From the IMG/VR virus record IMGVR_UViG_3300024999_000047: a stretch of 60,759 bases of DNA; one strand, given 5' to 3'. Both the position numbers and the translations under genes were made by a program. Below the pieces are notes generated by a model. That model made no database searches. It saw only the letters and a list, made by a program, of their open reading frames with translations, and was not told the DNA's origin. Positions 16,447 through 44,125 of this stretch are shown here, piece by piece. The stretch comes from an uncultured virus (IMG/VR IMGVR_UViG_3300024999_000047) (Duplodnaviria > Heunggongvirae > Uroviricota > Caudoviricetes). Position 1 is the first letter of the stretch, and each line of letters begins with the position of its first letter.

Positions 16447-16542
16447 TAATTTATAAAATGTTCGATTTATTCAAATATTTATTTATCTATATATATATAG
16501 ATATATAGTAGTTGAATAGTTATTACGATACTATATATAGTA
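16447..16542. repeat. core site plus paired TACTATATATAGTA-type boxes
   Basis: TAATTTATAAA atgttcga TTTATTCAAAT; boxes at 16497 and 16529 (32 bp apart). Confidence 0.55.
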
Positions 16543-16555
16543 TGTTTTTAATTAA

Positions 16556-17353
16556 TTAACTAACTTTTAAATCATCTTGATATGTATTAAAATCAATTAT
16601 GAATTTTTTATCTAAAACAACACCGTCTTTTTTATAATATACTTGTTTAATAATCTTTTGTTCATTTTCCCTTTTAGGGTATGTAGATTTTCCCAATAAT
16701 ATATTTATATTCTTATCTAATGTAAAAATGTAAATATGTTGTTTTGAATATATTTTGCTTACATTATTATATATTTCATATAATAATTGATTTGTAGTTT
16801 TTGGTGTATTCTTACCTTCTTTATACTTATGCCATATTTGCACAGCATGTAATACATTTCCATCTAATTCAAAAAAACTATCACTAACTCTATATCCATA
16901 ATATCCCCAATTAGTTGCTTGATATATTGTACCAACATTTCCTTCTTTACCATCGCTAAAAGATAATAGCCATTTTATATGTGGTTTAAATTTTTTTATG
17001 TATTTTATAGATAATCCAATTGCTTGACTTTCACAAAATTTAGGTGCTTCATCTAGCATTGCCATTCTATTTAATTCATACATTTCATTTTTATTACTAT
17101 CTTCTACTAATTTCTGTGGTGTTTTACTAGCATTCATAGGAGTTCCATACTGCAATGCACCAATTAATTCATTATTTGTTTTATCAAAAACTCCTAAATG
17201 TAATTTACTATTTGGAACAACTTTACCACTATAATGATATTTTTTAATTAATTCTTTAGCAATTTTTGCATCTATTTCAGTCATATAATAATTTTTATTT
17301 TCTGTCTTATTTATACTTGACTGCTCTCTCTTTATTATATGTAAATTTTCTAT
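16556..17353 (-). CDS. Mom-like adenine-modification enzyme, GNAT fold (ATA start)
   Basis: IKKYHYS, ELNRM, LLSFSD..GNVGTIYQATNWGYYG. In-frame ATA lies 8 nt after AGGAGG. Confidence 0.85.
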   Translation of the reverse strand: MENLHIIKREQSSINKTENKNYYMTEIDAKIAKELIKKYHYSGKVVPNSKLHLGVFDKTNNELIGALQYGTPMNASKTPQKLVEDSNKNEMYELNRMAMLDEAPKFCESQAIGLSIKYIKKFKPHIKWLLSFSDGKEGNVGTIYQATNWGYYGYRVSDSFFELDGNVLHAVQIWHKYKEGKNTPKTTNQLLYEIYNNVSKIYSKQHIYIFTLDKNINILLGKSTYPKRENEQKIIKQVYYKKDGVVLDKKFIIDFNTYQDDLKVS

Positions 17354-17400
17354 ATTTATTTCCTCCTAACAATTATATTTATATTTTGTTAAAATTTTAA

Positions 17401-17475
17401 AACATGACAAAACGTGGATTTGGTTATGATTTTTGAAAAATTAACACCCTCTAAACCCTTATAAATCAAGGGTTT
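17401..17475. repeat. dif/cer-like core site plus 23-bp accessory palindrome
   Basis: AACATGACAAA acgtggat TTGGTTATGAT, then AAACCCTTataaatcAAGGGTTT at 17453; linker nearly identical to 58415-58448. Confidence 0.7.
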
Positions 17476-17531
17476 AGAAAAATGGTAAATTGTGTAAATT
17501 TATAAATTTTGCTAATTATAAAATAATTTAA

Positions 17532-17568
17532 TTAGATATAATTGGATATTGTTAGATATTGTTAGATA
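17532..17568. repeat. four TTAGAT-like direct repeats at 10-bp period
   Basis: TTAGAT 17532, TTGGAT 17542, TTAGAT 17552, TTAGAT 17562. Confidence 0.6.
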
Positions 17569-17576
17569 ATTTATAT

Positions 17577-18131
17577 TTAACTTCTCCATGCAATACCTTG
17601 TTTTTGATATTCTAGCATGTTTTTAATTTGATTTGCAATTATTTCTGTACTTGCTTGTTCACCTTTAATATCTGTATACTTAATTCCATAATCATCTAAC
17701 ATTTTTCTCAATTTAATATCATCTTGTTTTGCTTCTTCTGCCGTCTGGAATCTTCCCACACTATTAAAAGGTTTAACTCTTTCAAGAAAATAGTTAAAAT
17801 TGTTAAATTTATTAAATTCAACTATTACATGTTGATTAAATGTTTCGTCAACTGGTTTATTGTAAAATGCAGATAATATAATTGGTGAATCTGTAACTAC
17901 TACATCTAATTTATTACAATCTACTAGTCGTTTTATATTATATTTTTGTTTTCCGAATATGTAATCTTGGTCTTTAAAAATAGCAGTTCTTTCTTCAAAT
18001 AATTGGTGTTTGACGTACTCCATAACGTATTCCACATTCACACCTAACCATTTTAATTCTGAAAATACACCACTTGCTAAACTACTTTTCCCTACTCCAC
18101 TTCCAGCAAAAAAGTTTACCACAATTGTCAT
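17577..18131 (-). CDS. P-loop ATPase/kinase, NadR-like AAA_28 family
   Basis: NFFAGSGVGKSS, EYVK, VTDSP, GRFQT motifs. Confidence 0.75.
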   Translation of the reverse strand: MTIVVNFFAGSGVGKSSLASGVFSELKWLGVNVEYVMEYVKHQLFEERTAIFKDQDYIFGKQKYNIKRLVDCNKLDVVVTDSPIILSAFYNKPVDETFNQHVIVEFNKFNNFNYFLERVKPFNSVGRFQTAEEAKQDDIKLRKMLDDYGIKYTDIKGEQASTEIIANQIKNMLEYQKQGIAWRS

Positions 18132-18553
18132 ATCAATTTACTCCCCTTATTTATTATTTTTATATTCATCTAACCAATTATAAATCCATTCTTTTAAATT
18201 CCTATGTCTATTTTCATTTGTAATACTAAATTTAAATTCTTCAGAATATGTTCTAATTGTTACGCAAAATATTCTTCCTGTTCTATTATCAAAACTACAA
18301 TCTACATATTTTATACGTTGATCTGATTTAAAAGGATTATAATTTTTATAAATATATTTTAATAATTCATTATAATCTCTTGGAGTCATATATTCACCAA
18401 ATGGCATTTCAATAATTTTATAATGTTCATCATTACTACATTTAGGACAACATTTATAATAAAATGATGAATCTTCATATCCACATATGTTACATATAAA
18501 TACATCTATTAATTCTTTAGACACTGTATTAATTTTCCTCCTTTCCGTTTATA

Positions 18554-19414
18554 TTAATAATTCGTAATCAAAACTTCCATTGTCGTACTATCATTCTTAT
18601 CTACTCTCTGATAATTTGCATTGCCATATTTAACATCTAAATTATGTACATTATATTTCTTATCCTTAACCCATTCTTTCAATATATCATTTGATTCACC
18701 TTTACTCTCTAATACATTTGATAATGCAAATCTAACACCATTATCATTTAGTTTATCAAGTAAATTTAATAAATCTTTTTCATCTTTTTCTTTCCATCCG
18801 CCTTTTTCATTATATGTAGCACATGTGATTAAATAAGGCGGATCAATATAGCAAAAATCTGAATCGGTTAAATAACTAATGTCTACTTCTCTAAAATCTA
18901 AATTTGTGAATTCCATATTTATATCTTGCAAATAATTTACAAACTTAATCAAATTATCTTTCATAGTAGAATTAAATGTTCGCTTACCAAATGGTAAATT
19001 AAATTCTCTTTTTGAATTGAATCTAATTTGATTACTAAATGAATGACATATTAATGTGTAGAAATATTCCCATTCTTTATTTACGTGATTATAATATTCT
19101 CTTAATTTAAGATAGTTTTCTTGATTATCTTTTGATAGATTAAATTTTTTTATTATTGATTCTATTTGATAAATAATATGTTCAGTACCTAATAAATAAA
19201 AATTATCATATAGATTGATCACTTCTTCAATGGTATCATTGCATATAATTTTATTTGCTTTAACGTTAACTGCAACATTACATCCACCACAAAACAAATC
19301 AATGAATGTATCTATATTGTCAGGGAATAGTGGTAGAATTTGAGGAAGTAATTTATATTTACCTCCGACATAGTTTAAAGGCGATTTTATTAAGTTTTGT
19401 TTTGTGAATTCTAT
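18554..19414 (-). CDS. dam: Dam-type (D12) DNA adenine methyltransferase (ATA start)
   Basis: In-frame extension KSPLNYVGGKYKLL..DLFCGG; FCYIDPPY; ALSN; EVLITNY. AGGAGG lies 9 nt before ATA at 19414. Confidence 0.9.
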   Translation of the reverse strand: MEFTKQNLIKSPLNYVGGKYKLLPQILPLFPDNIDTFIDLFCGGCNVAVNVKANKIICNDTIEEVINLYDNFYLLGTEHIIYQIESIIKKFNLSKDNQENYLKLREYYNHVNKEWEYFYTLICHSFSNQIRFNSKREFNLPFGKRTFNSTMKDNLIKFVNYLQDINMEFTNLDFREVDISYLTDSDFCYIDPPYLITCATYNEKGGWKEKDEKDLLNLLDKLNDNGVRFALSNVLESKGESNDILKEWVKDKKYNVHNLDVKYGNANYQRVDKNDSTTMEVLITNY

Positions 19415-19447
19415 CTTAGGTGTCCTCCTTTATTTATATTTTTTAAT

Positions 19448-19477
19448 ATTTGAATAAATCTTAAAATTGGTTACGAT
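19448..19477. repeat. dif/cer-like core site
   Basis: ATTTGAATAAA tcttaaaa TTGGTTACGAT; the stop codon of gene 19471..19887 lies within the right arm. Confidence 0.6.
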
Positions 19478-20069
19478 ATTATTTTTATAACTTCATTATA
19501 CATATCTGTACCTTTACAAATGTCATCACCAGTAAAACTACCACTTTTCTTTTGATTACATAAACTTTTATAATCATACATAGTTTCTTTTATGTTTGCT
19601 AATCCTTCCATTAATACAATTATAGGCAATATAATTGTATTAAATAATATTCCTTTCCAATTACAGAATTTATGTAGCAATATACAATTATCATTATAAT
19701 AATATTCATATTTATGATAAAATTTAATTTTACGTTGTTCAAATAATTTATTATGTTGCTTTTTAGTTAAATAAAATTGTTTATATCCTTGGTCTAATGG
19801 ATTTTTATAGATGTAGTTATTGCTATTCTTACTCAATATAACTACTCCTTTCTTCACTATCAACAATATCAATATCATCAATATCAATATTATTATATAA
19901 TTTAATTTTATTTTGTTGGATATTTATTGACAGCGATGTTTTTAAATTTCTAAGTTTTCTTTTATAATTTCTTACTATTGATTTGTCAGATTGGTTTATT
20001 AATTCTTCTTCTAAGATATTAATTTGTGTTTCTAATTGATTGATTGTATTAGTCAAATCCATATAATTA

Positions 20070-20822
20070 TTATTCCTTTCTATTCTTTAATTCTTTTAAT
20101 AATATTTTTAATTCTAATTTAATTTGCAATTCATAAATCTCAAAATCATCTATATCCATAATTTCTATTTCACCATTTCTTTCTACAAATAATTTACATT
20201 CGTAGCATTGAGATTGTGTTTGAGTATCGTCTACTCCAAATGGACATCTTGATTTAAGTACAATATAATTTTTATTTTCATTTTCGTAAATTACTTTTTT
20301 AACTTTATCACATATAGGAAATCTTTCATCATATGCTTTAATTTCATCTGGAGAAAAACAACCATATAATTTACACTTATCATGCGGTAAGATATCTAGG
20401 ACGTAATCAATCCAATCTTGACCACTCATAAGATCTGCATTTGCACCATTTCCGAATCTTGCATAAAATAATTCTCTACCTTCGATTGGCATTTGATTAA
20501 CAAAATCTAATATTTCTTTTTCATATTTATAACGTAATTGCATCATATTATTTTCTGAATATGTTTTAATAATTTCTAGTTTCCACCATTCAGGATTTGT
20601 AAGTTTGAAGCAATTATTGCAAAGTTGCAATATAGTAGAAAAGTTGGTAAATTTAGAATTATGATTAAGTGCAGGAATAAGTATTTCATATATTTGTAAG
20701 GATAATTGCAAACAATTAAAACAAGTGTTTTCTGAATTTTCTATTGCCATGTGGTGAAGATTGGTTGGATTGTTTGTTTCGATTATTTCTGTTAGTTTAA
20801 TTTGTTCAATAGATTGTAACAT
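20070..20822 (-). CDS. hypothetical Cys-rich protein
   Basis: 250-aa ORF with several CxxC motifs. Confidence 0.65.
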   Translation of the reverse strand: MLQSIEQIKLTEIIETNNPTNLHHMAIENSENTCFNCLQLSLQIYEILIPALNHNSKFTNFSTILQLCNNCFKLTNPEWWKLEIIKTYSENNMMQLRYKYEKEILDFVNQMPIEGRELFYARFGNGANADLMSGQDWIDYVLDILPHDKCKLYGCFSPDEIKAYDERFPICDKVKKVIYENENKNYIVLKSRCPFGVDDTQTQSQCYECKLFVERNGEIEIMDIDDFEIYELQIKLELKILLKELKNRKE

Positions 20823-20861
20823 AAATTTCTCCTTAGTATTTATATTATTAATTATCTTTTT

Positions 20862-22280
20862 TTATGTATTCATTGTAATCTTCTTTGTACATCCATCTAT
20901 AACCACCTGCTGTTTATGTCTTCCTTTACAACATGAAGTTATACCACTATTAAATATATTTAATTCTCTTTCTACTTCTCTTATACTATTCCAGTTTTTT
21001 ATAAAATTATTATTCAAATCTAATTGAACAACACTTATAGTCATACTTTCATATTTTTTCAAAGGTTTAATATTATTCATATTTTTATAATAATCTTCTT
21101 TAAACATCCATCTATAATTATTTGCTGTTTTTAATCTACTATTACAACAAGCAGAAATGCCTGTGTTTATGTTTTTTATTTTTAATATTTCTTCTGCTTC
21201 TATGGCTCCTTTATATTCTGCTATAAATTTACCGTCTAAAGATAATTGAACTACAGGTTTGAATCTTTTTTGACTCAAATTTTTACCATTCATTCTTTGT
21301 ATTTCTTCTGGATCATAATCGCACCAACCTAATTTAGCACCTTGTTTTAAATAACCACTTATAGTATTCAGACCTAATTTCATTATTTTACCAATTTCTT
21401 TTGTATTATCAATTCCATTACTCCATAATTCACATGCCTTTTTAACTAAACTACTACACGCAAATTCATGACATTTTAACCAATTAATATTTGATAAATC
21501 AAATAATTCACTTAATCTACTATGTAATATATTAATTTTTATATATTCTAAATTTGATTTTCTACAATCTATTCTAATAACTTCTATGCCATGTTCTCTT
21601 GCTAATTTATCTTTATAATCATCAATTGCTTGAGTTTCTTCTGCTGATTGACCGATAAATGGATTATAATTACCATGTCCTAATCCTCCGTCTATTTCTA
21701 AAATATAACCCTTATCATCTAATTCAAAATAAAAATCATATCTTTTAGGTTTGATCCAATTAGGATTATATTGATATTCAAAATTATTTACTATATATAT
21801 TTCTTCTAGTTGATTAAATAAAAATATACCAAATTTTTCTGGGTATGAAATACTATCACCACAATTTGGACATGGAAATTTTTCTTGTCTTATAAGAGAA
21901 TTTATATTTATAGATTTTTTATATCCGCAGTCAGGACAAATAAATATTTCTGGTTCTGTTTTACCATAACTTATTCCATGACCTATTTCTGGATATTTTA
22001 ATAATTGAGCAATTTCAGGATGTGTTGTCCATAAATCATTACAACCTTTTAAAACTTTATTATTTGAACATACATTACAACCTACGCCACGTTTTAAAGA
22101 AGATTCACTTATGTTATCAATATTTCCATCTATTAAGCATTTATATTTATATGCTTTTATATTAGATTTTCTAGTATCTATTATTGTTATTTGTTCTAGT
22201 ATTTCAATTTCACCATTTTTTGTTTTTATCGTATCTCCATTATTATATTTATAATTCCTTATTTTATTTTTAGTTCCCAA
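20862..22280 (-). CDS. PD-(D/E)xK/Vsr-like homing endonuclease with two NUMOD1-type repeats; C-terminal 1-nt frameshift
   Basis: Paralog of 411..1847; YDFYF..LEIDGGLGH. The expected tail TAGGYRWMYKE continues in another frame near 20915. Confidence 0.8.
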   Translation of the reverse strand: MGTKNKIRNYKYNNGDTIKTKNGEIEILEQITIIDTRKSNIKAYKYKCLIDGNIDNISESSLKRGVGCNVCSNNKVLKGCNDLWTTHPEIAQLLKYPEIGHGISYGKTEPEIFICPDCGYKKSININSLIRQEKFPCPNCGDSISYPEKFGIFLFNQLEEIYIVNNFEYQYNPNWIKPKRYDFYFELDDKGYILEIDGGLGHGNYNPFIGQSAEETQAIDDYKDKLAREHGIEVIRIDCRKSNLEYIKINILHSRLSELFDLSNINWLKCHEFACSSLVKKACELWSNGIDNTKEIGKIMKLGLNTISGYLKQGAKLGWCDYDPEEIQRMNGKNLSQKRFKPVVQLSLDGKFIAEYKGAIEAEEILKIKNINTGISACCNSRLKTANNYRWMFKEDYYKNMNNIKPLKKYESMTISVVQLDLNNNFIKNWNSIREVERELNIFNSGITSCCKGRHKQQVVIDGCTKKITMNT

Positions 22281-22400
22281 TATAATTTTATATCCTCCTT
22301 TTTAATATTGTTTTTCTTACAATTTATTTTACATTTCTATCTATTAATTTATTTTTCTTTTTGAATCTATTTTATCTCCTTTCTAAATATATTATATTAA

Positions 22401-23075
22401 TTATTTAATTAATTTTAAATTTCCGAACTCTTTATGTTTTTCTTCAAATTCTAATTTATCTAATTCTTTTTGTAAATCTTTAATTCTATCTTTTATATTT
22501 TGTTTCTTTTCTTCTATTTTAAACTTCTCAACATTTTCATTTTTATTTTGTTCATTTAATAAAAATTGTTCTTCAAATTTCCAATAATCTTTTTCTTGTC
22601 CTTTCCATGTACAATAACTTAAATTGGTAATCTTTTCTATTTTAAAAGATGGTGAATTCCAATCGCATCCATCACCACAACATTCATATTTTTCATTATA
22701 ACCTTTATCTTCAGGAGTACATTCACAATAACCCCAATGTCTTTCATCATATAAAAATTCTATACAATAATAATAGTTATAGTATGCATCTACCCAATGT
22801 TTTGATTTTTTTTCATCTTCTGTTTTTTCAATTAAAATTTTAATTTTACCATTTGTATAACCTTCAGAGTAGTCTTTGTCATAACCATTAATACAATATG
22901 TATGCTTAGTAATATCATCTAAGAATTCTTTACAATTTTCAATTTGTTGGTCAATTACTGAAATCATATAACATATGTCTAAAGGGTTTTTGCTATTATT
23001 AATCATGTGTTCATTTTCATTATTTAATTCTTTGATTAGGTTTTGGATAAATTGATTTTTAATTGAAATTGTCAT
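22401..23075 (-). CDS. hypothetical protein
   Basis: 224-aa ORF with SD and a CEC..CCGDGCDW cluster. Confidence 0.65.
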   Translation of the reverse strand: MTISIKNQFIQNLIKELNNENEHMINNSKNPLDICYMISVIDQQIENCKEFLDDITKHTYCINGYDKDYSEGYTNGKIKILIEKTEDEKKSKHWVDAYYNYYYCIEFLYDERHWGYCECTPEDKGYNEKYECCGDGCDWNSPSFKIEKITNLSYCTWKGQEKDYWKFEEQFLLNEQNKNENVEKFKIEEKKQNIKDRIKDLQKELDKLEFEEKHKEFGNLKLIK

Positions 23076-23749
23076 AAGTAATGTCTCTCCTTTTAATTTT
23101 ATAATTATAATGTATTTTTAATTTCTTCCCATAGAAAATCACATATTTCATCTACACCGTTTACTCTAATTAATGGTGCATTAAAATCATCTAACAATTC
23201 TATCATTTGACCAATGTTAGGAAGTGGATAATATTCGTAGTAAACTTTCGTACATTCATAAGATAATTCCTTACATGGTTTAGTGAAACAATTAATAAAT
23301 TCTGTTCCGTTAACATTTAGATAATAAATATCTCCCATTTTGATACCTTTGTTAATCCACCAATTAAATAGTTTTACTTTTTGTGTAGTTGATAATTCTT
23401 TGAGTTGTTCTTTAGTGATTATTTGTTTCATTTAATTTATTATCCCTTTCTTTTTATTATATTTACATTCTATGTTAATTTTTAAATTTGGTTACACATA
23501 ATTAATGTGTTAGTTTCTTCCAAGCAATCTAATTCGTTGATTAGTTTAGCAATTTTACAAATAATAATTTCTTTTTTATTAGGTATTTCTAATATTCCAC
23601 AACATTTATCTAGTAGTTTATATTTGCTGGTTAAGTAGCAAGTTTCTTGATATATGTTTGATTGATAGTAAAACGGACATTTTTCTTTTATACATTTTAA
23701 TTCTTTAACTTCCGCTTTCATATTCGACTTGTCCTTTCTTGTAATGATT

Positions 23750-23778
23750 ATTATACTATTATATTTATTATTTGTCAA
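23750..23778 (-). promoter_or_regulatory. sigma-A-type promoter
   Basis: TTGACA-17 nt-TATAAT. Confidence 0.75.
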
Positions 23779-23886
23779 CTGTTCATTACCATTTTAATTA
23801 GTTAAGTTTGGTAATTTATTTTTGTTTGTTTATTTGTTGATTGGTGTTTACTAGTATTAATTTTTTTAATTTGTTTTAATTTAGGG

Positions 23887-23915
23887 GAAAGTAGAGATTG
23901 TTAGTCTCTACTTTC
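23887..23915 (-). terminator. probable intrinsic terminator
   Basis: GAAAGTAGAGA / TCTCTACTTTC stem after dUTPase. Confidence 0.6.
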
Positions 23916-23936
23916 TGTTTGGTAATATTGATTATT

Positions 23937-24437: not shown

Positions 24438-24458
24438 ATGTATATTTATTCTCCTTTT

Positions 24459-24941: not shown

Positions 24942-24943
24942 AA

Positions 24944-28703: not shown

Positions 28704-30077
28704 CTAATTATATTTATTCAATTCTTTATCCAATATTTCTTCAATCCTATCAAAATCCCAATACCATATTACAAGTAAATTTATATTATTATTCTGTGCA
28801 TATTCACATTTTCTTTTATCATGTTCAACTTGCCTTTCAAAATCTTTCTTTGATTTATGAAACCCTTTACAATATTTTTCATGTTGCATACCATGATACT
28901 CTATAAGAAGATTATATATTGGCAAATAAAAGTCATAAGAGAGTAAACCATTTCTTAAACCTACTAATTCATCAAATTCTTTTTGAGGAATGTAATATAT
29001 TATTTTATTATATTTATCTTTATTAATTAATTTATTATATTCCTCTTGACATATTTTTATAAAATTTTTATGTATAAAATAATTGCTTATTGATTCTTCA
29101 CCTTTAGAATAACTACATTCAGGACAACGAAAATCAAGTTGATTAGATGTACTTATAATTCTAGGATAATCTTTATGTTTACCATCTGGACATTTCCAAT
29201 AAACTTCTTGACTACTATGTGGTGAATATTCATATGGAGATTTTTTATTTTTATTTGACCAAACTTCTAATGATTTAGGATATAAAGTACCTAAAGAATC
29301 TAAAGGATGTATTTTATATCTATTACTACAGTATGAACATCTTTGATTTTGATTTGTAAATTCAGGACATCCTATAGAATAGCTACCATGATATTTCTTC
29401 TCCTGACATTTTATCCATATTTTACTTTTTTTAGAACCATAACTTATTCCCCAAGGATCAATTATATTCTTATCCCAATCCCAATATCTATCTAAAAAGT
29501 CTCCACATATATTGTCTATACACCATTGAGCAAATGAATTACATTTATTACATTCTATTGATCCTTTTTGCCCTTCAACAAATCCATGTATATTTTTCAA
29601 TTCACTTTCATGTAAATTTCTTGGACATTTAAAATAATATTTTTTATGTGTGCTGTAACATATTTCATTTGGTTTAATATTATTATTTAATTCATAATCC
29701 CATCTATTAATTATATTATCTGCTTCTTCTTTAGATAAATTTTCATAACACCAATTATAAAAAGATTTTTTTAATTTTGTTTTAGATAATTTAACTGCAC
29801 ATTTTTGACAATAATATTTTCCATCTTCTTTAACACTTTGTTTATATGTACTCCATTGAATATACAATGGTGTGTCGCAATTATCACAAATTACATCAAC
29901 TCTAATTTCACTTTTATTTAACAAATCTTCTACTTTAACTAATATTTTTGTTCCTTGTATTACTCTTATATCACCTTTTTTATCTTGCTCTCTTGGTATT
30001 GGATATCCTAAATTTTCATAATATTTTATTAATTTATTATATAAAGGTGTTTCTACTTCTTTTGTTATTAATCCCAT
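28704..30077 (-). CDS. PD-(D/E)xK/Vsr-like homing endonuclease with repeated zinc-ribbon modules
   Basis: Repeated W..KN..P....S....W.C modules; SKGE; YDFYLP..LIEYHGMQH; D..K..YA; IWYWD. Confidence 0.8.
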   Translation of the reverse strand: MGLITKEVETPLYNKLIKYYENLGYPIPREQDKKGDIRVIQGTKILVKVEDLLNKSEIRVDVICDNCDTPLYIQWSTYKQSVKEDGKYYCQKCAVKLSKTKLKKSFYNWCYENLSKEEADNIINRWDYELNNNIKPNEICYSTHKKYYFKCPRNLHESELKNIHGFVEGQKGSIECNKCNSFAQWCIDNICGDFLDRYWDWDKNIIDPWGISYGSKKSKIWIKCQEKKYHGSYSIGCPEFTNQNQRCSYCSNRYKIHPLDSLGTLYPKSLEVWSNKNKKSPYEYSPHSSQEVYWKCPDGKHKDYPRIISTSNQLDFRCPECSYSKGEESISNYFIHKNFIKICQEEYNKLINKDKYNKIIYYIPQKEFDELVGLRNGLLSYDFYLPIYNLLIEYHGMQHEKYCKGFHKSKKDFERQVEHDKRKCEYAQNNNINLLVIWYWDFDRIEEILDKELNKYN

Positions 30078-34998: not shown

Positions 34999-35373
34999 TT
35001 ACTTAAATCTCTTCTTCATTTCCATACCTACTAATTCACCTACAATATCTTTTAATCCATTCTTAATCTCTGTGTCAGATTTAATATCAAATTGTTCCTT
35101 GACTTCTTTGTATTGTTTTGTCTCTACATACTTCTTACTCAAATCATCCACTAAACTATTTTTAACTTCTTCTTTAAAATCTGTATCCATAACATCTAAT
35201 AACATATCTTTAACTTCATTTATTAATTTATCTCTAAATGTTTTACCTGATTTTTCATATCTATTGTTTAAAACTTCGTTAATCATTTACCTTGCTGCTG
35301 ATTCAACTATTTTATCTTCTATAGTTAAAGGACTATCATAATCAGATAATTCTACTGTGAAAGTTAGTTTCAT
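34999..35373 (-). pseudogene. hypothetical gene with in-frame TAA at 35287-35289
   Basis: SD-preceded ATG at 35373 reads MKLTFTVELSDY..ESAAR*MINEVL in one frame. Confidence 0.55.
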
Positions 35374-36356
35374 TGATAATTATTCTCCTTTATCATTTTT
35401 AATTGTCTTTTAAATATTTAACTAAAAATATGTCAGATTCTTTCGTTTCATCTTCTAAATCTTCAACTCGCATATCAAAAATACTTACAAATCCATTCAT
35501 ATTATTATATGAATCTTGAAAATAAAATTCCATATATAAATTTTGATTTTTATCTAAATGGTATCTTTCTTTTAAATCTTCTTTTTTAGTTATGTAGTTT
35601 ATATGTTCTTCTTCTAAATGGCCATACATATCTAATATTTCATAAAAACCATCTAAATCTTTTAGTTCGTTTACAAAACTACTATACATAATTTCAATTA
35701 TATTTTCTACGTTAAATTCTTTATATTTTATAATTTCATTTACTTGTTCTCTGGTTAGTGGAATTGTATTTTTAAATACAAAATATCTACCAGCAGATTC
35801 ATATAAAGTTTCACCTCTAACATAAACTTCTATCACTGGCATATATTCATTAGATTTTATTAATAAATTATTAACAAATATATATCCTTCTTGTTTTGCT
35901 TTGTTGATAATTTCTTGTTTTTCAGATTCTATTTTTTCTATTTCTTTTATGTAATCCATATTTATTCTCCTTCCTCTCTTGCCAACATACCTTCGTACTT
36001 TGTTAAAATACTATTTAATTCATTACTCAAATAAATTTTATTATACCATTCTGATTTTTCTAATATATTTTCTACTTTTTCTATTAATGAATCAACATCA
36101 AGAATTGCATCTGCATAATTAGAGTTTTCTTCATTGCCATATTTACCATTTGAAGTTTCTCTTAATGGACAATCAGGATGTTTCCAATAATTATCGTAAT
36201 ATTCTTTTTCATCTATATCGTATTTTTGAGTATTCAATGGTACAGTATGATTCCATTCTACTAAACTACAAACCCAATTATTTTTACTTCTTAATTCACA
36301 TTCTTGACAAGATAATGGGAGATTATTTATTTTTGATTTATCAAAGTATATCAATT

Positions 36357-36764
36357 TTATTCTCCTTCTTCTTTCTTCTGTTTTCTCTGACTATTTTTAA
36401 TCTTCTCTATCTCTAATGCAATTTTACCATCATTTTTTTCTTCGCTTTTCTTATTTTCTTTATTTTTAATCTTATCACACCATTTTAATACTCCACAACA
36501 TCCAACATAAGTTATTGTCTTACCTTTATCTATTATTTCTTTACAAGTATATCTAGGATATTCCATATACATTTTACTTCCATCTTCATAATGATATTCT
36601 TTTTTAACAATTTCTCTAATTAGATTAGGACAATTATTTTTATTTGTTGAGACAGATTCTTCATTGATATCATCATTATCGTCATCTATGTATTGATTTT
36701 CTAATTCTATTTCTTCATCGTCTTTATGTTTATTTTCTAATTGAGTATTTTTAGGTTTGCGTAT
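36357..36764 (-). CDS. hypothetical protein, probable ATA start
   Basis: 64-codon in-frame extension of ORF 36357..36572 to an ATA preceded by GAAGGA. Confidence 0.5.
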   Translation of the reverse strand: MRKPKNTQLENKHKDDEEIELENQYIDDDNDDINEESVSTNKNNCPNLIREIVKKEYHYEDGSKMYMEYPRYTCKEIIDKGKTITYVGCCGVLKWCDKIKNKENKKSEEKNDGKIALEIEKIKNSQRKQKKEEGE

Positions 36765-36878
36765 GATTTATTCCTTCTTTCTATATTGTTTATATGTTTA
36801 TGTTTTAATTTATATTTACTTTCTATATATGTAGTATACAATTATTTTTATGTTCTGTCAAGATAAATTTTACCTAAT

Positions 36879-37058
36879 ATTGTGACCAAATTCAGATTTT
36901 ATCATGATATCTATATTGATAGTTTAAATTTTGGTAAATTAGTGCTTGTAAAGTATTGAATTATAAGGGTTTACAAGCACTAATTATGGAAATATTGAAA
37001 AATCTATATTTTTAGGTATTTTTGCCATGTTTGAATGAAACAGGCATTTTATCATGTT
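36879..37058. repeat. 180-bp twin-core element 1 (core - palindrome - core)
   Basis: ATTGTGACCAA attcagat TTTATCATGAT; 23-bp palindrome at 36950-36972; GTTTGAATGAA acaggcat TTTATCATGTT. Confidence 0.7.
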
Positions 37059-37064
37059 TTTATT

Positions 37065-37819
37065 TTATGTATTTTTGTTAATTAATTGATTAATTCTTTC
37101 ATTTGCGATGTTAAAATATTTTTCTTCTTTTTCAATTCCTATATATTGTCTATTTGTGTTAATACAAGCAATGGCAGTAGTACCAGAACCAATACAATTG
37201 TCTAAAACTATGTCATTTTCATTGCTATATGTTTTAATTAGATATTCAAATAATTCTACAGATTTTTGAGTAGGATGAATAGTTAAACTAGGATGCATTT
37301 TTTTAATGTAATTATAGAAGTAGGAAATTTCATATCTCCATGTTCATTAGATTTATCAATCATATTTGCTTTACTATAATTACTTCCACTAATATCATCT
37401 CTTATTTTATCACCTTTTGAATGACTTTTCTTTTCTCCTTTGAATTTTTGTGGATTGTATGTAGGTTGTTTCTTATAAAATACTAATACATCTTCATGTT
37501 TTCTTAACGGCATTCTATTAGCATTTAAAAATCCAGTAGTCATAATTTTATCCCAAATTAAATTATATTTCCACATTTTTCTATTGCTTATCATTAAATC
37601 TGCTGTAAACATTCCATTAGCAAATAGACAAATCACCCCATTATCTTTTACTATTTTTTCATAATGCATCCATAATTCATTAAATGGTATTACTGTATCC
37701 CATTTATTTCTTGCAGTTTGACCATAAGGTAAATCACATAAAATCATATCTATACTTTTATCATCAATATCCTTCATTAATTCTAAGCAATCACCTAAAT
37801 ATATTTTGTTTAATTCTAT
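37065..37819 (-). CDS. beta-class N4/N6 DNA methyltransferase split by a -1 frameshift at an A7 run (ATA start)
   Basis: NKIYLGDCLE, ILCDLPYG, HE in the 5' ORF; HPTQKS and VLDNCIGSGTTAIA in the 3' ORF; junction TTA AAA AAA TGC. Confidence 0.85.
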
Positions 37820-38710
37820 ATTTAATTCCTCCTAATTATTATATTTTTAATATAAATAATATTTTCAATAAAAATTAATTATCTAATACCAAATATTACA
37901 GAAATAATAATAAATAAAATACTTCCAATTAAACAAGATATATAAAGTTTTTCTATATATCCTACTTTCTCATTAGAATTAGAACTTTTGTTATTACTTT
38001 TCCTATTACGGGAATTATTTACATAATCAATCCATTCTTTATCATTATTATTATATTCATAATGATTTCTACCATCATGCCATCCATATACACGGTTTGA
38101 CACATTCATAAGGAATTCCCAATCTTCTGAATTCATATGTTTTTCTCCTTTTTAAAATTTACTAATATATTATATTGTTATTATATTCAATAATTATTTA
38201 AAATCTATTTTATTATAAAGTTTATTAACATAAATAATAAAATTATCTAGTGATGCAATATTTTCAAATAAAAACTTTTCACCAAAACCACCAATTACAG
38301 GATTTCCTTTATCATTGCATACTCTTATCCTTACACCTTCTGAATAAAAAATTACTGTAGTAATTATAATATCAGACATAATATAATCTGAATTTTTATA
38401 CCTATATGATTTAATAAATGTTTTATCTTTATATTCAAAACCATGATGTAATAAATACTCGTCAATTTCTTTAGATATAACATAGTTTGATCTTTCTATA
38501 GGATTCATTATATTAAACATTCCTGACATATAAATCATTATCTCCTTTAAATTATTATTTTTATTTTTATATTTTAATTATTTATTTAAATGAACATATT
38601 CCATATTATTATAATAACAATAAATACTAATGATGCAAAAATACATCCTGTAAAAAAATATTCAGTGTTTTCTTTTGATGATTCATTACTACTCCATTTA
38701 CTCAAAAATC

Positions 38711-39142
38711 TCACTTCCTTAATATTATGTTATAAATATCTTCTGGAAAATACTCGCCTTTATTTATACCTTTATTATTAGATAAACCAATAACTCTTGC
38801 AACAAATTCATCACAACATGTACCAGAAAAAATATTATCATATATTTTCCATGTATTTATATTTTTTATTGGTATGTATATGGGGTTTAATTCTGATAAT
38901 CTTTTAATTCTTTTATTGGCATTTTGTATGATTGTATTTTCATAATTAAAACATTCATAAAAAGTGTCTTCAACATATACCCCTACATGTTGAAATTCAC
39001 CTTTTAAATATGGCGTTCTGTCTTCTTCTCTTTGTAAAGGAATAAAAAATATATATCCATTTTTATATCTTTGTTTAGTATATTTTTTAATATTGAACTC
39101 TAATAATTTTATTTGTTTACTTATATCCAAACATTCTAACAT
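38711..39142 (-). CDS. possible permuted papain-like (NlpC/P60) protein
   Basis: HVGVYV followed by C.EFVARV, His before Cys. Confidence 0.45.
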   Translation of the reverse strand: MLECLDISKQIKLLEFNIKKYTKQRYKNGYIFFIPLQREEDRTPYLKGEFQHVGVYVEDTFYECFNYENTIIQNANKRIKRLSELNPIYIPIKNINTWKIYDNIFSGTCCDEFVARVIGLSNNKGINKGEYFPEDIYNIILRK

Positions 39143-39452
39143 TTGATAATATTATCTTCCTTTCTTTAATATTTTATTTGACAATCATAATTTTTATTAA
39201 ATTAATACTTCAACAAACTCATCATTTTTATCTTTATAAATTTTAGATACTAAAATATTTTTTATAGTAAATCCTATTTCTTCTCCATTATTTATTATTT
39301 CTTCTGCTTGTTTACATTTTAATTCATCTATAGCAAATACATTACCATTATCATTAAATAATAAAATACCTTTAATATAAGAAATAAAATGTTCTCTATC
39401 TACAATTAACATGTAATCCTCCTTTTATAAATATATTTATAATTTCTATAAA

Positions 39453-39542
39453 ATCATGATAAAACCAAAATTTGGTGTCGATTTTTAATAAATTTTATCT
39501 ATATATGGTATGTATTTAGTTGAATAACTACTATATGTAGTA
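39453..39542. repeat. core site plus paired TACTATATATAGTA-type boxes
   Basis: ATCATGATAAA accaaaat TTGGTGTCGAT; boxes at 39497 and 39529 (32 bp apart). Confidence 0.7.
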
Positions 39543-39550
39543 TATAGTTA

Positions 39551-40381
39551 TCAATTTATTTCTGGTATTTGCTCTTTTATGTATTTGTAAATATGCCATA
39601 AACTAATATGTGGAGTACCAATCATTGGATATACTTCAGTCCAATTTGTATTTATTAATAATTTCATTATATTATTTTTATATTTGTCGTTTTTTATTTT
39701 AATACACATTTCTGTTGAATACTGCCCCTCATAATCACATAGTTTACCTATAGAAGAACCCCATGCACATATTCTTATATCATAATCAAAAATATCTTTA
39801 GTTAAAAAATGTGTTTTTGGTGGATTCGCTTTTCTATGAGAAGTTTTAATTTCAACATCTTTAAGTTTATAATTTGGTTTTTTATTTAAATTATTTTTAG
39901 GTCTTTTATAAATGTTAAAACAACAATAAATCTTTTTACTTGAATATTCTTTTATATTTAAATCTTTACTATATATTAAATCAAAATCAAATAATTTAAT
40001 TTTATTATTTAATTGACTTACAGGGAGAATAAATGATATATAATCACTTAATTTTATGGATTTCTTATAAAATTGCTCTGCTAATTTCATCATATTTCCA
40101 TATGGTGGATTACCAATCACGCATCTACCTTTTTTATATTCTAGATCTAAACTAAGGAAATCTTGTTTTATAATTCTACCTTTATCATCTTCTGGTTCGA
40201 TATCATATGCTGAATATGGTAAATTTAATTCATCTAAATAATCAAGAAATACTCCACTCCCTGCTGATGGTTCAAGATATTCAGTAATATTTTCTTCGCC
40301 TATTATTTCTCTAGTTTTATCTACTATATATTTTGCTAAATCTGGAGGCGTGTAGTATTTGTCTAAATGTATTTTTGCCAA
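39551..40381 (-). CDS. gamma-class N6-adenine DNA methyltransferase
   Basis: KYYTP, LEPSAGSGVF, IGNPPYG. Confidence 0.85.
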   Translation of the reverse strand: MAKIHLDKYYTPPDLAKYIVDKTREIIGEENITEYLEPSAGSGVFLDYLDELNLPYSAYDIEPEDDKGRIIKQDFLSLDLEYKKGRCVIGNPPYGNMMKLAEQFYKKSIKLSDYISFILPVSQLNNKIKLFDFDLIYSKDLNIKEYSSKKIYCCFNIYKRPKNNLNKKPNYKLKDVEIKTSHRKANPPKTHFLTKDIFDYDIRICAWGSSIGKLCDYEGQYSTEMCIKIKNDKYKNNIMKLLINTNWTEVYPMIGTPHISLWHIYKYIKEQIPEIN

Positions 40382-40410
40382 TAATTTTATTCTCCTTTTA
40401 TTATTTTATT

Positions 40411-41019
40411 TTATTTTTTATTTGCTTGATTAACCATTATATTAAAAAAATCTACTTCTTCATCTACATTATTTAATTTTAAATAATCATCCCATGTAAC
40501 TAAACTGCAATAACATCCTGAATCAATAAATCCTAAAATAAACTCTACATTACATCTAGTTTTAGTAGATAAATTCATTTTGTGCCTATTGTTTTTATAA
40601 AACAATTGTGGAGTATCACCAAATTTTCTACTCATTGCTTTCCAATCACAAATCATTTGATTAATATATTTTAATGGCATATCAATTGCATTTTCATTAT
40701 TATCTATCCAATAATTCCAATGATGAAGATTATTTTTATAATGATGTTCCCATGCTTTGTTAAAATTATTTTTACTTTCTAAATAATTCCTACTTACATT
40801 AGACATTCCATTATTTAATTGTTCATAGTTATAATCTTTTTCAAGTTTTACACCATGATACCCATAAAACCATTCTGCATATGGGATAAATTCTGTAGGT
40901 AAAAATTTACTTAAATCATGTGTAAATGCATGTATGTATTGTTTATCTTTCCAACATTCAATAAATACATTTTTTTTGTGTTCTAAGATGTATTTTAGGT
41001 AATTGATGTGTTTCTTCAT
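40411..41019 (-). CDS. HD-superfamily phosphohydrolase (DUF5662-like)
   Basis: HK, HDLSK..E, AW.HH..N.HHW.YW, MICDW. Confidence 0.75.
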   Translation of the reverse strand: MKKHINYLKYILEHKKNVFIECWKDKQYIHAFTHDLSKFLPTEFIPYAEWFYGYHGVKLEKDYNYEQLNNGMSNVSRNYLESKNNFNKAWEHHYKNNLHHWNYWIDNNENAIDMPLKYINQMICDWKAMSRKFGDTPQLFYKNNRHKMNLSTKTRCNVEFILGFIDSGCYCSLVTWDDYLKLNNVDEEVDFFNIMVNQANKK

Positions 41020-41056
41020 ATGGTATATTATTCTCCTTTTAATTTTATTTGTAAAT

Positions 41057-41292
41057 ATTGACATAAAAGCGATGTTTGGTCACGATATTATTTTATATTA
41101 TTAAATTCTCATTTTAAAGTGTCTCTAAACACTTGTATTATAAGGGTTTATAAGCACTTTATTAATAAATAACAATAAGATTACGATATTACGTAATAAT
41201 TCCCATATTGTGATAAAACGAATCTTTCGTTCAAACTTAATTTTACTACCATATATAGTGGTTAATTAGTTTTCTCGCTACTATATATGGTA
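41057..41292. repeat. 180-bp twin-core element 2 (41057-41236) followed by paired TACTATATATAGTA-type boxes
   Basis: ATTGACATAAA agcgatgt TTGGTCACGAT; palindrome 41127-41149; ATTGTGATAAA acgaatct TTCGTTCAAAC; boxes at 41247 and 41279. Confidence 0.7.
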
Positions 41293-41311
41293 TTTTTATC
41301 TGAAATATTTT

Positions 41312-42787
41312 CTATTTTGAAACCCTTTCTCTAATTTCTGATAAACTTTCATCTCTTAAAAGTTTCCCATCAACAAATACATTTTCTAGTAAATCAATAT
41401 CTTTATAATTTTCACGTTGTTCTAATGTTAAATTATCAATATAAATTATATTACCATTTTCTTTATAAACAACAACTAATCCTTTTTGTGATTTCTTAAT
41501 TCCATTATCAGTTACAGGGTCTTTGAATAAGAATTTTTCTTCTTCGTTAATTAATGCATAAGTTGATTTTAAAGCAAATCCAAAGGTATCTCTAGTATTA
41601 TATTGATAAGTGAAACTTCCAATTCCATAAACCATATTAGTAGATGCAAATCCTTTTTTCATCAATTGTTCACAAATTTCTTTACATCTTTCAAGAGTAA
41701 TTGCATCGCCATAAATACAGCCAATATGTGAATCTAATACTTTATAATTTTTATCTGTGATTGTACCACCAAAAATATCCCAAAGTATTTCTATTACACC
41801 TTTTCGTTCATTTTCATTATCAGATTTTAAATCTCCACAAATAATTTTAACTGGATCACCAGAATCAGGACGAATTACAATCTTACCATCCCTATTCATA
41901 ATTTCACTTTTTAATGGTTTAATAACATTATTTAATACTGACCACAAATCCCACGTATCACTTACAATAGATACAAAACCATTTGGATAAACTTCAGTTA
42001 TAATTCTTTTATAAGATTCTAATTCATCTTGTCCGTATGCACACATTACACTATGCTCCGTTGCAGGGATCGATGTTCCTACTAATTCATTTTCAATGTT
42101 TGCATTATAGAATTCTTCAAGATATAAAATTGATGGAATTGTATCTGTCCCTACAAATGAAAGTAAATGTCCTGCACCACTAGATTTAGCAGAATCAAGT
42201 GAATCTTTCCCTCTAAAACTAAAATCATGTCCTTGGAATTGGACAAACGACATATCTCCACCAGTTTTTTCTGCATATTCATCAAGAATTTTTCTATACT
42301 CTTTTGCTAATGTTGCATTTGTAGAAGGTTGCCACAAACAACAACTCATTAAAGTTTCAATATAATTAGTTAACCAGAAGAATTTAGGGCTAGTATTTTC
42401 TACTGTTAACATAGGTACTCTAATAGGAATTAATGTTCCTTCTTTAACTGCCTTAATTTTTAAAGGTAAGTATCCCAATTTATGTAATTCAATAATATGT
42501 GATACATTAGGATTTTGAACACCAAGAGTATATTTAATTACTCTTTTATATTCATTAGCAACATCATCTATATTTCTATTAAAGAAATTCTCATTAAAAT
42601 AATTAATTAAATATTCTTTAATAAATGCTTGAAAACCAAATGCAACTACTTTATCAATTCCTTCTACTCTACTTGTTCTTGGTGTCCAAGTTGAATAAAT
42701 CTTATCCGTATCTTTTGGATATTGTTCTTTATGACTTACTTTATAAAAATCACATAGCAATGTTGCTGGATAGATATATTTACTCAT
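41312..42787 (-). CDS. nicotinamide phosphoribosyltransferase-family enzyme (Namat-like, NARP1)
   Basis: CDFYKVSH..QYP, HDFSFRG, GTDT, PATEHSV, SIVSDTWD, VIRPDSGDP, IYGDAIT, TRDT, KDP.TD. Confidence 0.92.
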   Translation of the reverse strand: MSKYIYPATLLCDFYKVSHKEQYPKDTDKIYSTWTPRTSRVEGIDKVVAFGFQAFIKEYLINYFNENFFNRNIDDVANEYKRVIKYTLGVQNPNVSHIIELHKLGYLPLKIKAVKEGTLIPIRVPMLTVENTSPKFFWLTNYIETLMSCCLWQPSTNATLAKEYRKILDEYAEKTGGDMSFVQFQGHDFSFRGKDSLDSAKSSGAGHLLSFVGTDTIPSILYLEEFYNANIENELVGTSIPATEHSVMCAYGQDELESYKRIITEVYPNGFVSIVSDTWDLWSVLNNVIKPLKSEIMNRDGKIVIRPDSGDPVKIICGDLKSDNENERKGVIEILWDIFGGTITDKNYKVLDSHIGCIYGDAITLERCKEICEQLMKKGFASTNMVYGIGSFTYQYNTRDTFGFALKSTYALINEEEKFLFKDPVTDNGIKKSQKGLVVVYKENGNIIYIDNLTLEQRENYKDIDLLENVFVDGKLLRDESLSEIRERVSK

Positions 42788-42815
42788 ATTAATTATTCTC
42801 CTTTTTATATTAATA

Positions 42816-43685
42816 TTATATTAAATCATTAATTTCATAAATACTGATTCTATTTTCTTGAATCCATTTTTCTCTTAACCATTTAGTTTTATCAGTAAAC
42901 ATACTATTTGTGGTAAATACTTTATTAATTAAATCTGTATTAAATATTTTACCTTCAAATATATTATCTTCGCAATGTCCTATAACAAGATATATTTCTT
43001 TTGCTCCCATTTCTTTTAATCTTTCTGAACCTAAAATAAAAGTACCACCGAAACTCGATAAATCATCCAATATAATTACTTTACAATCTTTGTTTATCAT
43101 ATCTCCAATAACTTGTAAATGTGTTATTGTACCAGTCTTAAAATCTCTTTTCTTAAATCCAATTAATGTATTAAATCCACTATCTATCATTTTACTATAT
43201 CTTTTTTCTGCTCCACCATCTGCAAAATATACATAGTCTTTTTCTTTATTAAAATTAACAATATTTAATACATTATTAAATATTTTAATAGAAGGGAAAT
43301 TAGAAATTGATTTATTTACTAACGCAGAAGTAACATCTGAATGTGGTTCAATTATTTTAATACTTGTAAAATTTAATGAATTAATAAAGTCACTAATATA
43401 TTTTAATGTAAATAGTGCTTCTCCTTCATCTCTATCCATTCTACTATATGGCATATAATAAATTAATAAATCTATTTTAACATTGCTATAATTTATACTA
43501 TCCAAATACTTTTTAACAAACATTAACTTAATTAAATCACTATCATTTTCATACTTAAATTCAACTAAATTATCACACCTAACATTATATGTATCTTCTA
43601 AATGTTTTAATTGATTATTTTTTATTAATGTCTCATTATTTGGTAATGAATCGAACTTAATTTCTTGCCCATTTAATTTAATCAT
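42816..43685 (-). CDS. ribose-phosphate pyrophosphokinase-family enzyme (Adps-like, NARP1)
   Basis: YMPYSRMDR, EPHS, ADGGAEKRY, KKRD..TG, IILDDL..GGTF. Confidence 0.9.
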   Translation of the reverse strand: MIKLNGQEIKFDSLPNNETLIKNNQLKHLEDTYNVRCDNLVEFKYENDSDLIKLMFVKKYLDSINYSNVKIDLLIYYMPYSRMDRDEGEALFTLKYISDFINSLNFTSIKIIEPHSDVTSALVNKSISNFPSIKIFNNVLNIVNFNKEKDYVYFADGGAEKRYSKMIDSGFNTLIGFKKRDFKTGTITHLQVIGDMINKDCKVIILDDLSSFGGTFILGSERLKEMGAKEIYLVIGHCEDNIFEGKIFNTDLINKVFTTNSMFTDKTKWLREKWIQENRISIYEINDLI

Positions 43686-43717
43686 ATAATAAATCTCCTT
43701 TTTTATTTTTTTATTTA

Positions 43718-43993
43718 TTATAATTTTTCAATTGCATCTAAAACTGTTTTTACAGTTACCCTGTCATACTCTTGAATATTATCTGCCAATTCATCATATG
43801 GATACATATCAGCATGGCATTTATCACAATGTTTGGTGAATTTTTCTTCTGTACCATTAAGTTTAGAATAAAACATGCATTCATTAGGTGCATGAAATCC
43901 TTGTTTTTTCTTTTCTTCCCACCATGAATTGTGTACTTGTTCTGCTAAAAATTCTAGTTTACTTCTTAAAAGATCAATATTCATATTACTCAT
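43718..43993 (-). CDS. RyR-domain-like small protein
   Basis: LAEQVHNSW...K..QG...H.DM.PYDEL....EYDR. Confidence 0.65.
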   Translation of the reverse strand: MSNMNIDLLRSKLEFLAEQVHNSWWEEKKKQGFHAPNECMFYSKLNGTEEKFTKHCDKCHADMYPYDELADNIQEYDRVTVKTVLDAIEKL

Positions 43994-44095
43994 AATTAAT
44001 TTCTCCTTTTTAATTTATTTTTTTATCTACAATTATATTACCATTTTGTTATTAGTATGTCAAGGTTTATTTTCATCAATTTATTAAAATTAAAA

Positions 44096-44125
44096 GTTTG
44101 AATAAAAGACATAATTTATTAAATT
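44096..44125. repeat. dif/cer-like core site (weaker)
   Basis: GTTTGAATAAA agacataa TTTATTAAATT, abutting the stop of gene 44125..44643. Confidence 0.45.

Follow-up and report, generated by a model that had tools for sequence, protein, structure and literature searches.

A 60,759-nt stretch of DNA from an uncultured virus of the Caudoviricetes (IMG/VR record IMGVR_UViG_3300024999_000047), analyzed here in full and called the window, carries repeated intergenic copies of a dyad-symmetric site of about 30 bp, ATYRTGAYMAAA-N6-TTTKRTCAYRAT, that are conserved in related phages even where the genes beside them have been swapped. We infer that this palindrome is a putative operator, bound by a dimeric double-stranded DNA (dsDNA)-binding protein, most likely a transcription regulator encoded by the phage, and that the composite linkers in which it sits serve as patches of homology for the exchange of cargo genes. 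Judged from sequence, we give this reading a probability of about one half. The proposed linker would begin with the stop codon of the preceding gene, continue in many cases with a hairpin, and then comprise a 30–34-bp palindrome, sometimes a sigma-A-type promoter, and a ribosome-binding site. A dozen units of the phage's early region would have such a linker at their head, some of them long core operons (i.e., replication and nucleotide metabolism) and others very short DNA-modification or anti-defense units. Because the linkers are mutually similar and conserved among related phages, they could double as short homology patches between which ordinary homologous or microhomology-driven recombination replaces, inserts, or deletes open reading frames (ORFs), so that the short units would behave as exchangeable cassettes over evolutionary time, with no need for a dedicated integron-type recombinase. 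The sites would then be general regulatory heads rather than dedicated cassette recombination sites, and their putative regulatory role may be repression, activation, or blockage of read-through.

A dyad-symmetric site between genes

The site consists of two 12-bp arms around a 6-nt unconserved spacer (12-6-12). A symmetric position weight matrix (PWM) made from ten copies of the site scored above 17 bits at ten positions of the window (8841, 17401, 19448, 36879, 37029, 39453, 41057, 41207, 44096, and 58388), with the next best match at 13.9. Ten copies exceed 15 bits, versus 0.12 expected from shuffles, and all ten are intergenic. Circularity was avoided by training an independent 34-column PWM on 128 oriented copies from relatives only, excluding both the window and its closest relative, G006. 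This matrix also gave ten window matches above 15 bits (8841, 17401, 19448, 36879, 37029, 39453, 39779, 41057, 41207, and 58388), whereas shuffled sequences averaged 0.07 and never had more than 1. Site 44096 scores 12.9 bits under the independent PWM and has a near-identical orthologue in G006. The copy at 39779–39808 (15.9 bits, independent PWM) lies within a methyltransferase-like ORF (39551–40381); it may have arisen by chance or represent a site in decay.

A first-pass annotation of the window, made without database searches, had described counter-defense genes in intervals bounded by eight such sites between 16447 and 44125. Seven of these boundaries hold; the eighth, a weak and degenerate site downstream of the Mom-like gene (16447..16476), scores below 9 bits and is not recovered by the independent PWM. 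Three sites were absent from that account. One is 36879; the other two, 13757–13788 (25.4 bits) and 45320–45351, are intergenic, have an 8-nt spacer, and came from a half-site scan with free spacing. Since 45320–45351 aligns with 6-nt-spacer sites of G006 and of a second close relative, G002 (NrdD, 95%), the length of the spacer varies within orthologous sites.

Seven other viral contigs carry 7–25 copies of the motif each. Above 15 bits, relatives G005, G006, G007, G008, G009, and G010 have 7, 8, 12, 21, 10, and 25 copies, respectively, with shuffle means of 0.03–0.46. These copies are mostly intergenic (82/95), though 78–89% of the DNA is coding. G002 has two copies, and two further relatives, G003 (DnaE, 87%) and G004, have none.

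When 82 sites were oriented by the direction of the neighboring gene, their halves proved equally conserved as reverse complements. The symmetry continues two bases past the 30-mer (flanking AA/T), and the 6-nt spacer carries almost no information. Arms of the ACCAAA type and of the ATAAAA type occur in either order relative to genes, both in the related contig L002 and in the window. RNA folds of ten sites gave 0 to −5.5 kcal/mol (z from −1.15 to +0.87), i.e., no hairpin. Equal halves, extended symmetry, absence of folding, and either order of the arms are together the expected signature of a dimeric protein that would bind dsDNA, and differ from what an RNA element, a directional promoter, or a hairpin of the attC kind would show.

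The DNA on the two sides of the site differs. The 52 nt upstream have a mean folding z of −1.98, with 41% below −2, versus −0.10 and 5% for the 52 nt downstream. The clearest hairpin in the window, rich in G+C (17447..17481, minus strand), stands just upstream of site 17401, and a similar one precedes site 58388. On the downstream side, a Shine–Dalgarno sequence follows within 20 nt in 32/82 sites, most often at 5–10 nt, and 13/82 sites have a strong TTGACA-type promoter between site and Shine–Dalgarno, at variable distance. The window offers two examples, TTGACA-17-TATACT at 36861–36833 after site 36879..36908 and TTGACA-17-TAATAT at 44063–44035 after site 44096..44125. Consensus promoter and terminator scans of the whole window stayed at shuffle level (107 vs. 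107.0 and 136 vs. 130.7) and were used only to locate individual sites.

Could the site itself be a promoter, read by a phage-specific sigma factor or RNA polymerase, with the intervals as transcription units of one temporal class? Where a Shine–Dalgarno sequence follows within 20 nt, as in the 32 sites above, a separate promoter would not fit in between; the arms are similar to weak −35 and −10 elements; and the upstream hairpins could end preceding transcripts. However, the site is fully dyad-symmetric and shows no preferred orientation relative to gene direction, its −35-like and −10-like elements are 12–15 nt apart, too short for sigma-70-type promoters, and the 13 sites with a separate strong sigma-A-type promoter downstream show no constant distance to it, which makes this explanation very unlikely.

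Units headed by the sites

The minus strand carries essentially all long ORFs of the window, including the Mom, Dam, methyltransferase, DUF5662, RyR, and NARP1-like genes, whose identities come from Pfam and PHROGs. In the direction of transcription, site 58388..58417 heads the replication operon. No site had been seen within that operon (45917–58328), which is confirmed by a best score there of 10.0, inside an ORF; the operon does have a site, just upstream of it. The segment 57948–58650, comprising the first gene of the operon with the upstream site and hairpin, is 72–89% identical in nucleotide sequence in G006, G007, G008, and G009; G008 otherwise has only four proteins in common with the window. 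Next, site 45320..45351 heads three conserved ORFs (44861–45319, 44655–44873, and 44125–44643), and the weaker site 44096..44125 an interval (41312..43993) with RyR-domain (43718–43993), PRPP-synthetase-like (42816–43685), and NAMPT-like (41312–42787) genes. Site 41207..41236 is followed by an empty 150-bp slot that ends at site 41057..41086, which heads DUF5662 (40411–41064, probable start at 41019) and the gamma-methyltransferase-like gene (39551–40381) in the interval 39551..41064. Site 39453..39482 precedes four small ORFs and a beta-class methyltransferase gene (37065..39412), an interval closed by site 37029..37058; a second empty 150-bp slot separates the latter from site 36879..36908, behind which lie 17 kb of mostly nucleotide-metabolism and unannotated genes. 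Site 19448..19477 heads the Dam unit (17577..19414), made up of Dam, a hypothetical gene (18147–18524), and an AAA_28 ATPase (17577–18131). Site 17401..17430 (33.8 bits) heads Mom, TnpB, and small ORFs, and site 13757..13788 further ORFs, followed by site 8841..8870, which has an orthologue at the same junction of G002 (25459). Counter-defense genes thus occupy short intervals, yet the sites are not specific to them, as core operons are headed too.

The contents assigned to the intervals in the first-pass annotation stand. AAA_28 and D12 matches identify the ATPase and Dam between 17401 and 19448, with the hypothetical gene between them, and an N6_N4 methyltransferase match supports the beta-class group between 37029 and 39453. 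Between 39453 and 41057, where a gamma-class methyltransferase and an HD protein had been named, the matched genes are the methyltransferase-like gene and DUF5662. For the NARP1 pair plus RyR protein between 41207 and 44096, the pair is confirmed and the RyR match is weak. The pair matches phrog_619 at 5.1e-65 and phrog_448 at 3.4e-199, with Pfam NAPRTase and NAMPT_N; based on gene adjacency, the PRPP-synthetase-like and NAMPT-like genes are a predicted NARP1-like pair (Adps + Namat). The statement that Mom lies alone between 16447 and 17401 holds on the upstream side (17401) only, because 16447 scores below 9 bits.

Several cargo genes have unusual reading frames. Dam (18554–19297) has a conserved N-terminus upstream of its first ATG/GTG/TTG codon, and when it is extended to an ATA start at 19414, which stands 9 nt behind AGGAGG, the Pfam D12 score increases from 108 to 146 bits with profile coverage of 1–251; G006 Dam has ATC where the window Dam has ATA. 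The same Shine–Dalgarno–ATA–GAA layout occurs upstream of Mom (in frame, near 17353–17359) and in the beta-class methyltransferase (37819), two genes in which Pfam does not discriminate. The beta-class N6_N4 methyltransferase (37065–37819) is split into ORFs 37283–37819 and 37065–37298, which overlap by 16 nt; this looks like a frameshift, and in L002 and G006 one unbroken ORF encodes the homologue (255 and 272 aa, respectively). Mom (16556..17284) matches PF25680 over its full length (178.6 bits, cut-off 27.1; profile positions 5–202/202), and its nucleotide similarity to L002 (80%) and L003 (76%) is limited to the ORF. Downstream of Mom lies a TnpB-like gene (OrfB_IS605, 15221–16201), and upstream of TnpB a separate inverted repeat (TTATCGTCA...TGACGATAA) at 16400–16450 adjoins the weak 16447 site. 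TnpB homologues of G002 and G007 also adjoin palindromic sites.

The two empty slots belong to a class of closely spaced pairs. Adjacent sites are 149–151 bp apart in 7/114 distances and less than 400 bp apart in 14/114; the seven pairs are 36879/37029 and 41057/41207 in the window, 459/609 in G006, 87303/87452 and 133196/133345 in G008, 30292/30443 in G009, and 9519/9668 in G005. The roughly 120 bp between paired sites contain a hairpin and no ORF, and one such slot holds Dam in G006. Pairs of this kind may represent cassette slots without cargo, operators that act together by looping, or the location of a small RNA.

A Pfam scan of the first genes downstream of sites in relatives covered 56 distinct genes from 67 site–gene pairs, once duplicates had been removed along with two genes lying across chunk borders and the four homologues of the first replication-operon gene. 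Pfam matches were found in 18/56. Ten of these 18 encode a DNA methyltransferase, Dam, or Mom, and the remainder NADAR, two PAPS-reductase-domain proteins, radical SAM, an exonuclease, two HNH proteins, and a ligase. The NADAR-domain protein (6.6e-26) is encoded in G006 (L046:3934-4389) by the gene directly behind the site orthologous to 41057, likely another counter-defense gene in a site-headed slot.

Exchange of cargo around conserved linkers

The clearest evidence for exchange comes from G006, where orthologues of sites 44096, 41207, 41057, 39453, 37029, and 36879 follow in the same order, the first four with identical spacers. The linkers are 74–85% identical to those of the window, and the cargo is different in every slot. 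A 76-aa ORF stands in place of the RyR gene and NARP1-like pair, five other ORFs replace DUF5662 and the methyltransferase-like gene, and the slot that is empty in the window between 41207 and 41057 is filled by Dam (67% to window positions 19489–18548). The 130-bp linker around site 39453 is 83% identical between flanking genes that differ. At the orthologue of 41207, the G006 junction is chimeric: the left flank and the spacer match the context of window site 41207, while the right arm onward matches the context of Dam.

Other relatives tell a similar story. In G002, a homologue of ORF 44125–44643 is followed by one unrelated 89-aa ORF and then by homologues of 35962–36572; because these flanking homologues nearly adjoin, the 36.6–44.1 kb region is wholly absent there. 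The nucleotide match to G002 stops at 44115, inside site 44096, and unrelated ORFs take the place of the Mom/ATPase/Dam block. In L040, which carries a NAMPT-like gene (80% in amino acids), similarity to the window breaks off at 41240, at a distance of 4 nt from site 41207, with unrelated genes beyond. Mom of L002 (82% in amino acids) has sites on both sides and other methyltransferases around it, the match being confined to the ORF. Homologues flanked by sites in other contexts were thus found within the lineage for Mom (L002), for Dam and the beta-class methyltransferase (G006, L002, and G010), for the gamma-methyltransferase-like gene (G010, on one side only), and for the NAMPT-like gene (L040), which bears out the expectation of such homologues elsewhere for this lineage only. 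Outside it, the Mom homologue in L003 is without such sites, and a scan of 30 non-self NAMPT-like loci found sites of this kind only at L080, on the same contig as L040, the other 29 having none. Single matches of 15.7–16.1 bits in L070, L074, and L075 (42–46% GC) were taken as chance. A DUF5662 homologue in G007 (83%) lies at a quite different place with no adjoining site above 15 bits.

A breakpoint test, which counted ends of BLAST matches of at least 150 bp that fall in intergenic DNA no more than 15 nt from a site, gave a modest excess. In the window, 7/61 intergenic match ends are near a site against 5.9% expected (p = 0.07), with 3/41 in G008, 4/19 in G010, 7/68 in G007, and 6/29 in G009; pooled, 27/218 were observed and 11.6 expected, an excess of about 2–2.3-fold. 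In contigs from the groundwater runs that contain the window's sequence, 36867 is joined to 41215 via a hybrid site, at a depth of 43 in one run and 103 in another, and further joints at or near sites connect 37749 to 39423, 41007 to 41240, and 44019 to 41065.

A number of results weigh against the reading of the palindrome as an operator whose linkers promote exchange. The remaining 191/218 (~88%) intergenic match ends are away from sites, and BLAST match ends are non-independent events. Gene-order comparison placed a site at 3/33 broken and 0/6 conserved junctions in G002 and at 5/34 and 0/3 in G007; site junctions were not enriched among broken ones in four relatives (Fisher p = 0.6 to 1), and broken junctions far outnumber conserved ones, the region being mosaic everywhere. 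Several relatives were found by motif search, which biases the sample toward site-bearing contigs. The contig joints may stem from related phages or from repeats, and are treated as hints of related variants because the contigs are short and were placed at 85% likeness, with 20–36 nt on the shorter side. As for regulation, no helix-turn-helix match was found among the proteins of the window, itself part of a genome, and an Xre-type gene beside the G008 integrase has no site nearby. A promoter in fixed register with the site was looked for and none was placed, and the RNA runs searched for 36.5–45.6 kb included none with the sequence. The case for the sites as promoters of exchange is suggestive, not strong. 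By the gene-order comparison suggested along with it, the proposal of exchangeable anti-defense cassettes stands in part: the intervals are accessory, their modules are not syntenically fixed, and the cargo differs among relatives, but most homology breakpoints are not at sites and broken junctions show no enrichment there.

Many of these figures also suit palindromes that are purely regulatory, acting as scattered operators under a prophage or early-phase repressor and taking no part in gene exchange, with the variable cargo produced by ordinary phage mosaicism. Synteny is broken at most junctions with or without a site, no Fisher test is significant, most match ends fall elsewhere, sites also head core operons, and the lineage is probably temperate. 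A precedent is SPBRE of the Bacillus prophage SPbeta, a 15-bp motif in intergenic promoter regions that is bound by the master repressor MrpR (PMC10516654). What mosaicism alone explains less readily is that six consecutive linkers are kept in G006 around entirely different cargo, that one G006 junction is chimeric within a site, that homology stops at or inside sites in L040 and G002, and that pooled match ends are about 2.3-fold in excess near sites. We hold a purely regulatory role to be possible but doubtful.

At the other extreme stand dedicated recombination sites. In integrons, the attC site of a cassette folds as a single-stranded hairpin, lies 3′ of a promoterless ORF, and is served by an adjacent IntI/attI/Pc platform. 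The first-pass annotation drew this parallel from stop codons, whose positions are as described: the stop of ORF 19471–19887 falls in the upstream arm of site 19448, and that of ORF 44125–44643 abuts site 44096. Like integron cassettes, the units are short (one to five genes), have imperfect inverted repeats as limits, and vary in content among relatives. The analogy breaks down in that the sites do not fold, stand 5′ of genes at the ribosome-binding site, some with their own promoters after them, head core operons too, and have neither an adjacent IntI/attI/Pc platform nor a shared recombinase. With no hairpin, no shared recombinase, and positions before ribosome-binding sites and the replication operon, the sites are operator-like rather than attC-like.

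The same evidence bears on site-specific recombination more broadly, whether integron-like or as cassette exchange between orthologous sites of co-infecting phages. The 12-6-12 layout is that of tyrosine-recombinase sites, the orthologous sites of G006 retain the same spacers, and in site 41207 the G006 junction and a contig joint coincide with the boundary between spacer and arm. Nevertheless, common descent alone predicts shared spacers, orthologous sites have both 6- and 8-nt spacers, breakpoints lie at either site edge and inside with no single fixed position, ribosome-binding sites directly adjoin the sites, core operons are headed by them as well, and attC-type folding is lacking. No integrase or resolvase match was found in the window (Phage_integrase in 0/97 ORFs), and no recombinase is common to the site-bearing relatives; Phage_integrase occurs in only 2/5 of them and not beside the arrays. 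We consider site-specific recombination highly improbable. It is just as improbable that the sites are heterospecific, each slot having its own 6-nt spacer and the exchange being run by a not-yet-recognized recombinase or nuclease. Different spacers would in that case make the sites within one genome incompatible and the orthologous slots of co-infecting relatives compatible, which, if true, would amount to a natural cassette-exchange system circulating anti-defense genes among phages.

Returning to the putative operator, the search for a cognate protein yielded few candidates. A 193-aa gene after G010 site 62012 has a weak winged-helix match (E = 0.004). The first gene of the replication operon (w_58044, 58044–58328, 94 aa) encodes the one protein that every site-bearing contig has and that is missing from G003 and G004, which carry no sites, with G003 lacking it at the corresponding place; it directly follows a site in G006, G007, G008, and G010 and has no site near it in G009. 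AlphaFold models it as an all-beta protein that has an acidic tail (pLDDT 66.5), and a Foldseek search of this model gave no PDB match at E ≤ 0.001. With no recognizable fold, w_58044 was dropped as a regulator or binding protein; at a guess, its product is SSB-like. The idea of a partition site was also set aside, ParB_N giving one sub-threshold match in five relatives.

Known analogues and other features of the window

Dispersed operator sets are known from other phages, e.g., as operators of C1 in phage P1 and as stoperators in mycobacteriophage L5. SPBRE resembles the present site as a short conserved element repeated in intergenic or promoter regions of a large phage, heading separate early units; the difference is that here the element is a 30–34-bp palindrome with a cognate protein that is only inferred, whereas the binder of SPBRE is known. 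In architecture and behavior, the closest known analogue appears to be the promoter-early stem-loop (PeSL) elements, reported from T4-like phages as mobile cassettes with a regulatory function (PMC4122927 and PMC2839356). Each combines terminator and promoter in a small motif situated in a hyperplastic region, and unrelated sequences are exchanged there by homologous recombination (PMC4122927). Both are composites of an intergenic stem-loop and a regulatory element, repeated among the accessory ORFs of variable regions. PeSLs mark places where unrelated genes are exchanged between close relatives, as the present linkers may (clear in G006, L040, and G002, but not significant in the gene-order tests). 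Unlike in PeSLs, the conserved element is a 30-bp dyad-symmetric site rather than an early promoter, only about 40% of sites have the hairpin, the breakpoint excess at the motif is modest, and the lineage consists of low-GC, DnaE-encoding, probably temperate groundwater phages unrelated to T4. The principle is already known, and what is new is the sequence of the site, its dyad symmetry, and the phage lineage.

If the operator-and-linker reading is true, these large low-GC phages keep their genes for DNA modification and anti-defense in short operator-headed units reshuffled among relatives, including Mom, several methyltransferases, an NAD+-reconstitution pair, and, in a relative, a NADAR gene. 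The site would then be a sequence tag for new counter-defense candidates among the unannotated small ORFs behind it, and the lineage would provide a second, independent case, besides the PeSLs of T4, of regulatory repeats as joints for accessory-gene exchange.

The window has a G+C content of 21–27%, with a GC skew that is negative throughout. Its gene content includes the DnaE-type replication operon, anaerobic NrdD/NrdG, nucleotide-metabolism genes, and numerous homing-endonuclease-like genes; Rfam found no family in the window and ARAGORN no tRNA. The nearest named relative by DnaE is the Clostridioides phage LIBA6276 (45% identity), and megablast of the 36–46 kb region against the named phage collection returned a single 124-bp match and nothing else. 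The sequence is present in groundwater metagenome runs, and another IMG/VR contig, L001, is 99.8% identical to window positions 6559–27319. Among five long relatives, G008 and G010 encode tyrosine integrases, G007 and G002 large serine integrases, and the G009 contig none; because four of the five encode integrases, the lineage is probably temperate, a prediction from gene content that leaves the lifestyle of the window's own phage apart. A 655-aa protein common to G006–G010 is a NAD-dependent DNA ligase.

Homing-endonuclease-like genes (NUMOD1, DUF4379, HNH, and HNH-AP2) occur at 411–1295, 5493–6707, 12930–13244, 20862–22280, 28704–30077, 49527–50750, and 58656–59460, and one of the window's genes of this kind, with a LAGLIDADG match, stands between the RecJ-like and DnaE genes. 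NrdD is 1153 aa long in G002 (8573–12034) and 686 aa in the window, which suggests an inserted element in the former. At the upstream edge of the window, the ORF at 59580–60746 has a PARP catalytic domain (PF00644, 4.2e-25), and its G009 homologue is 74% identical.

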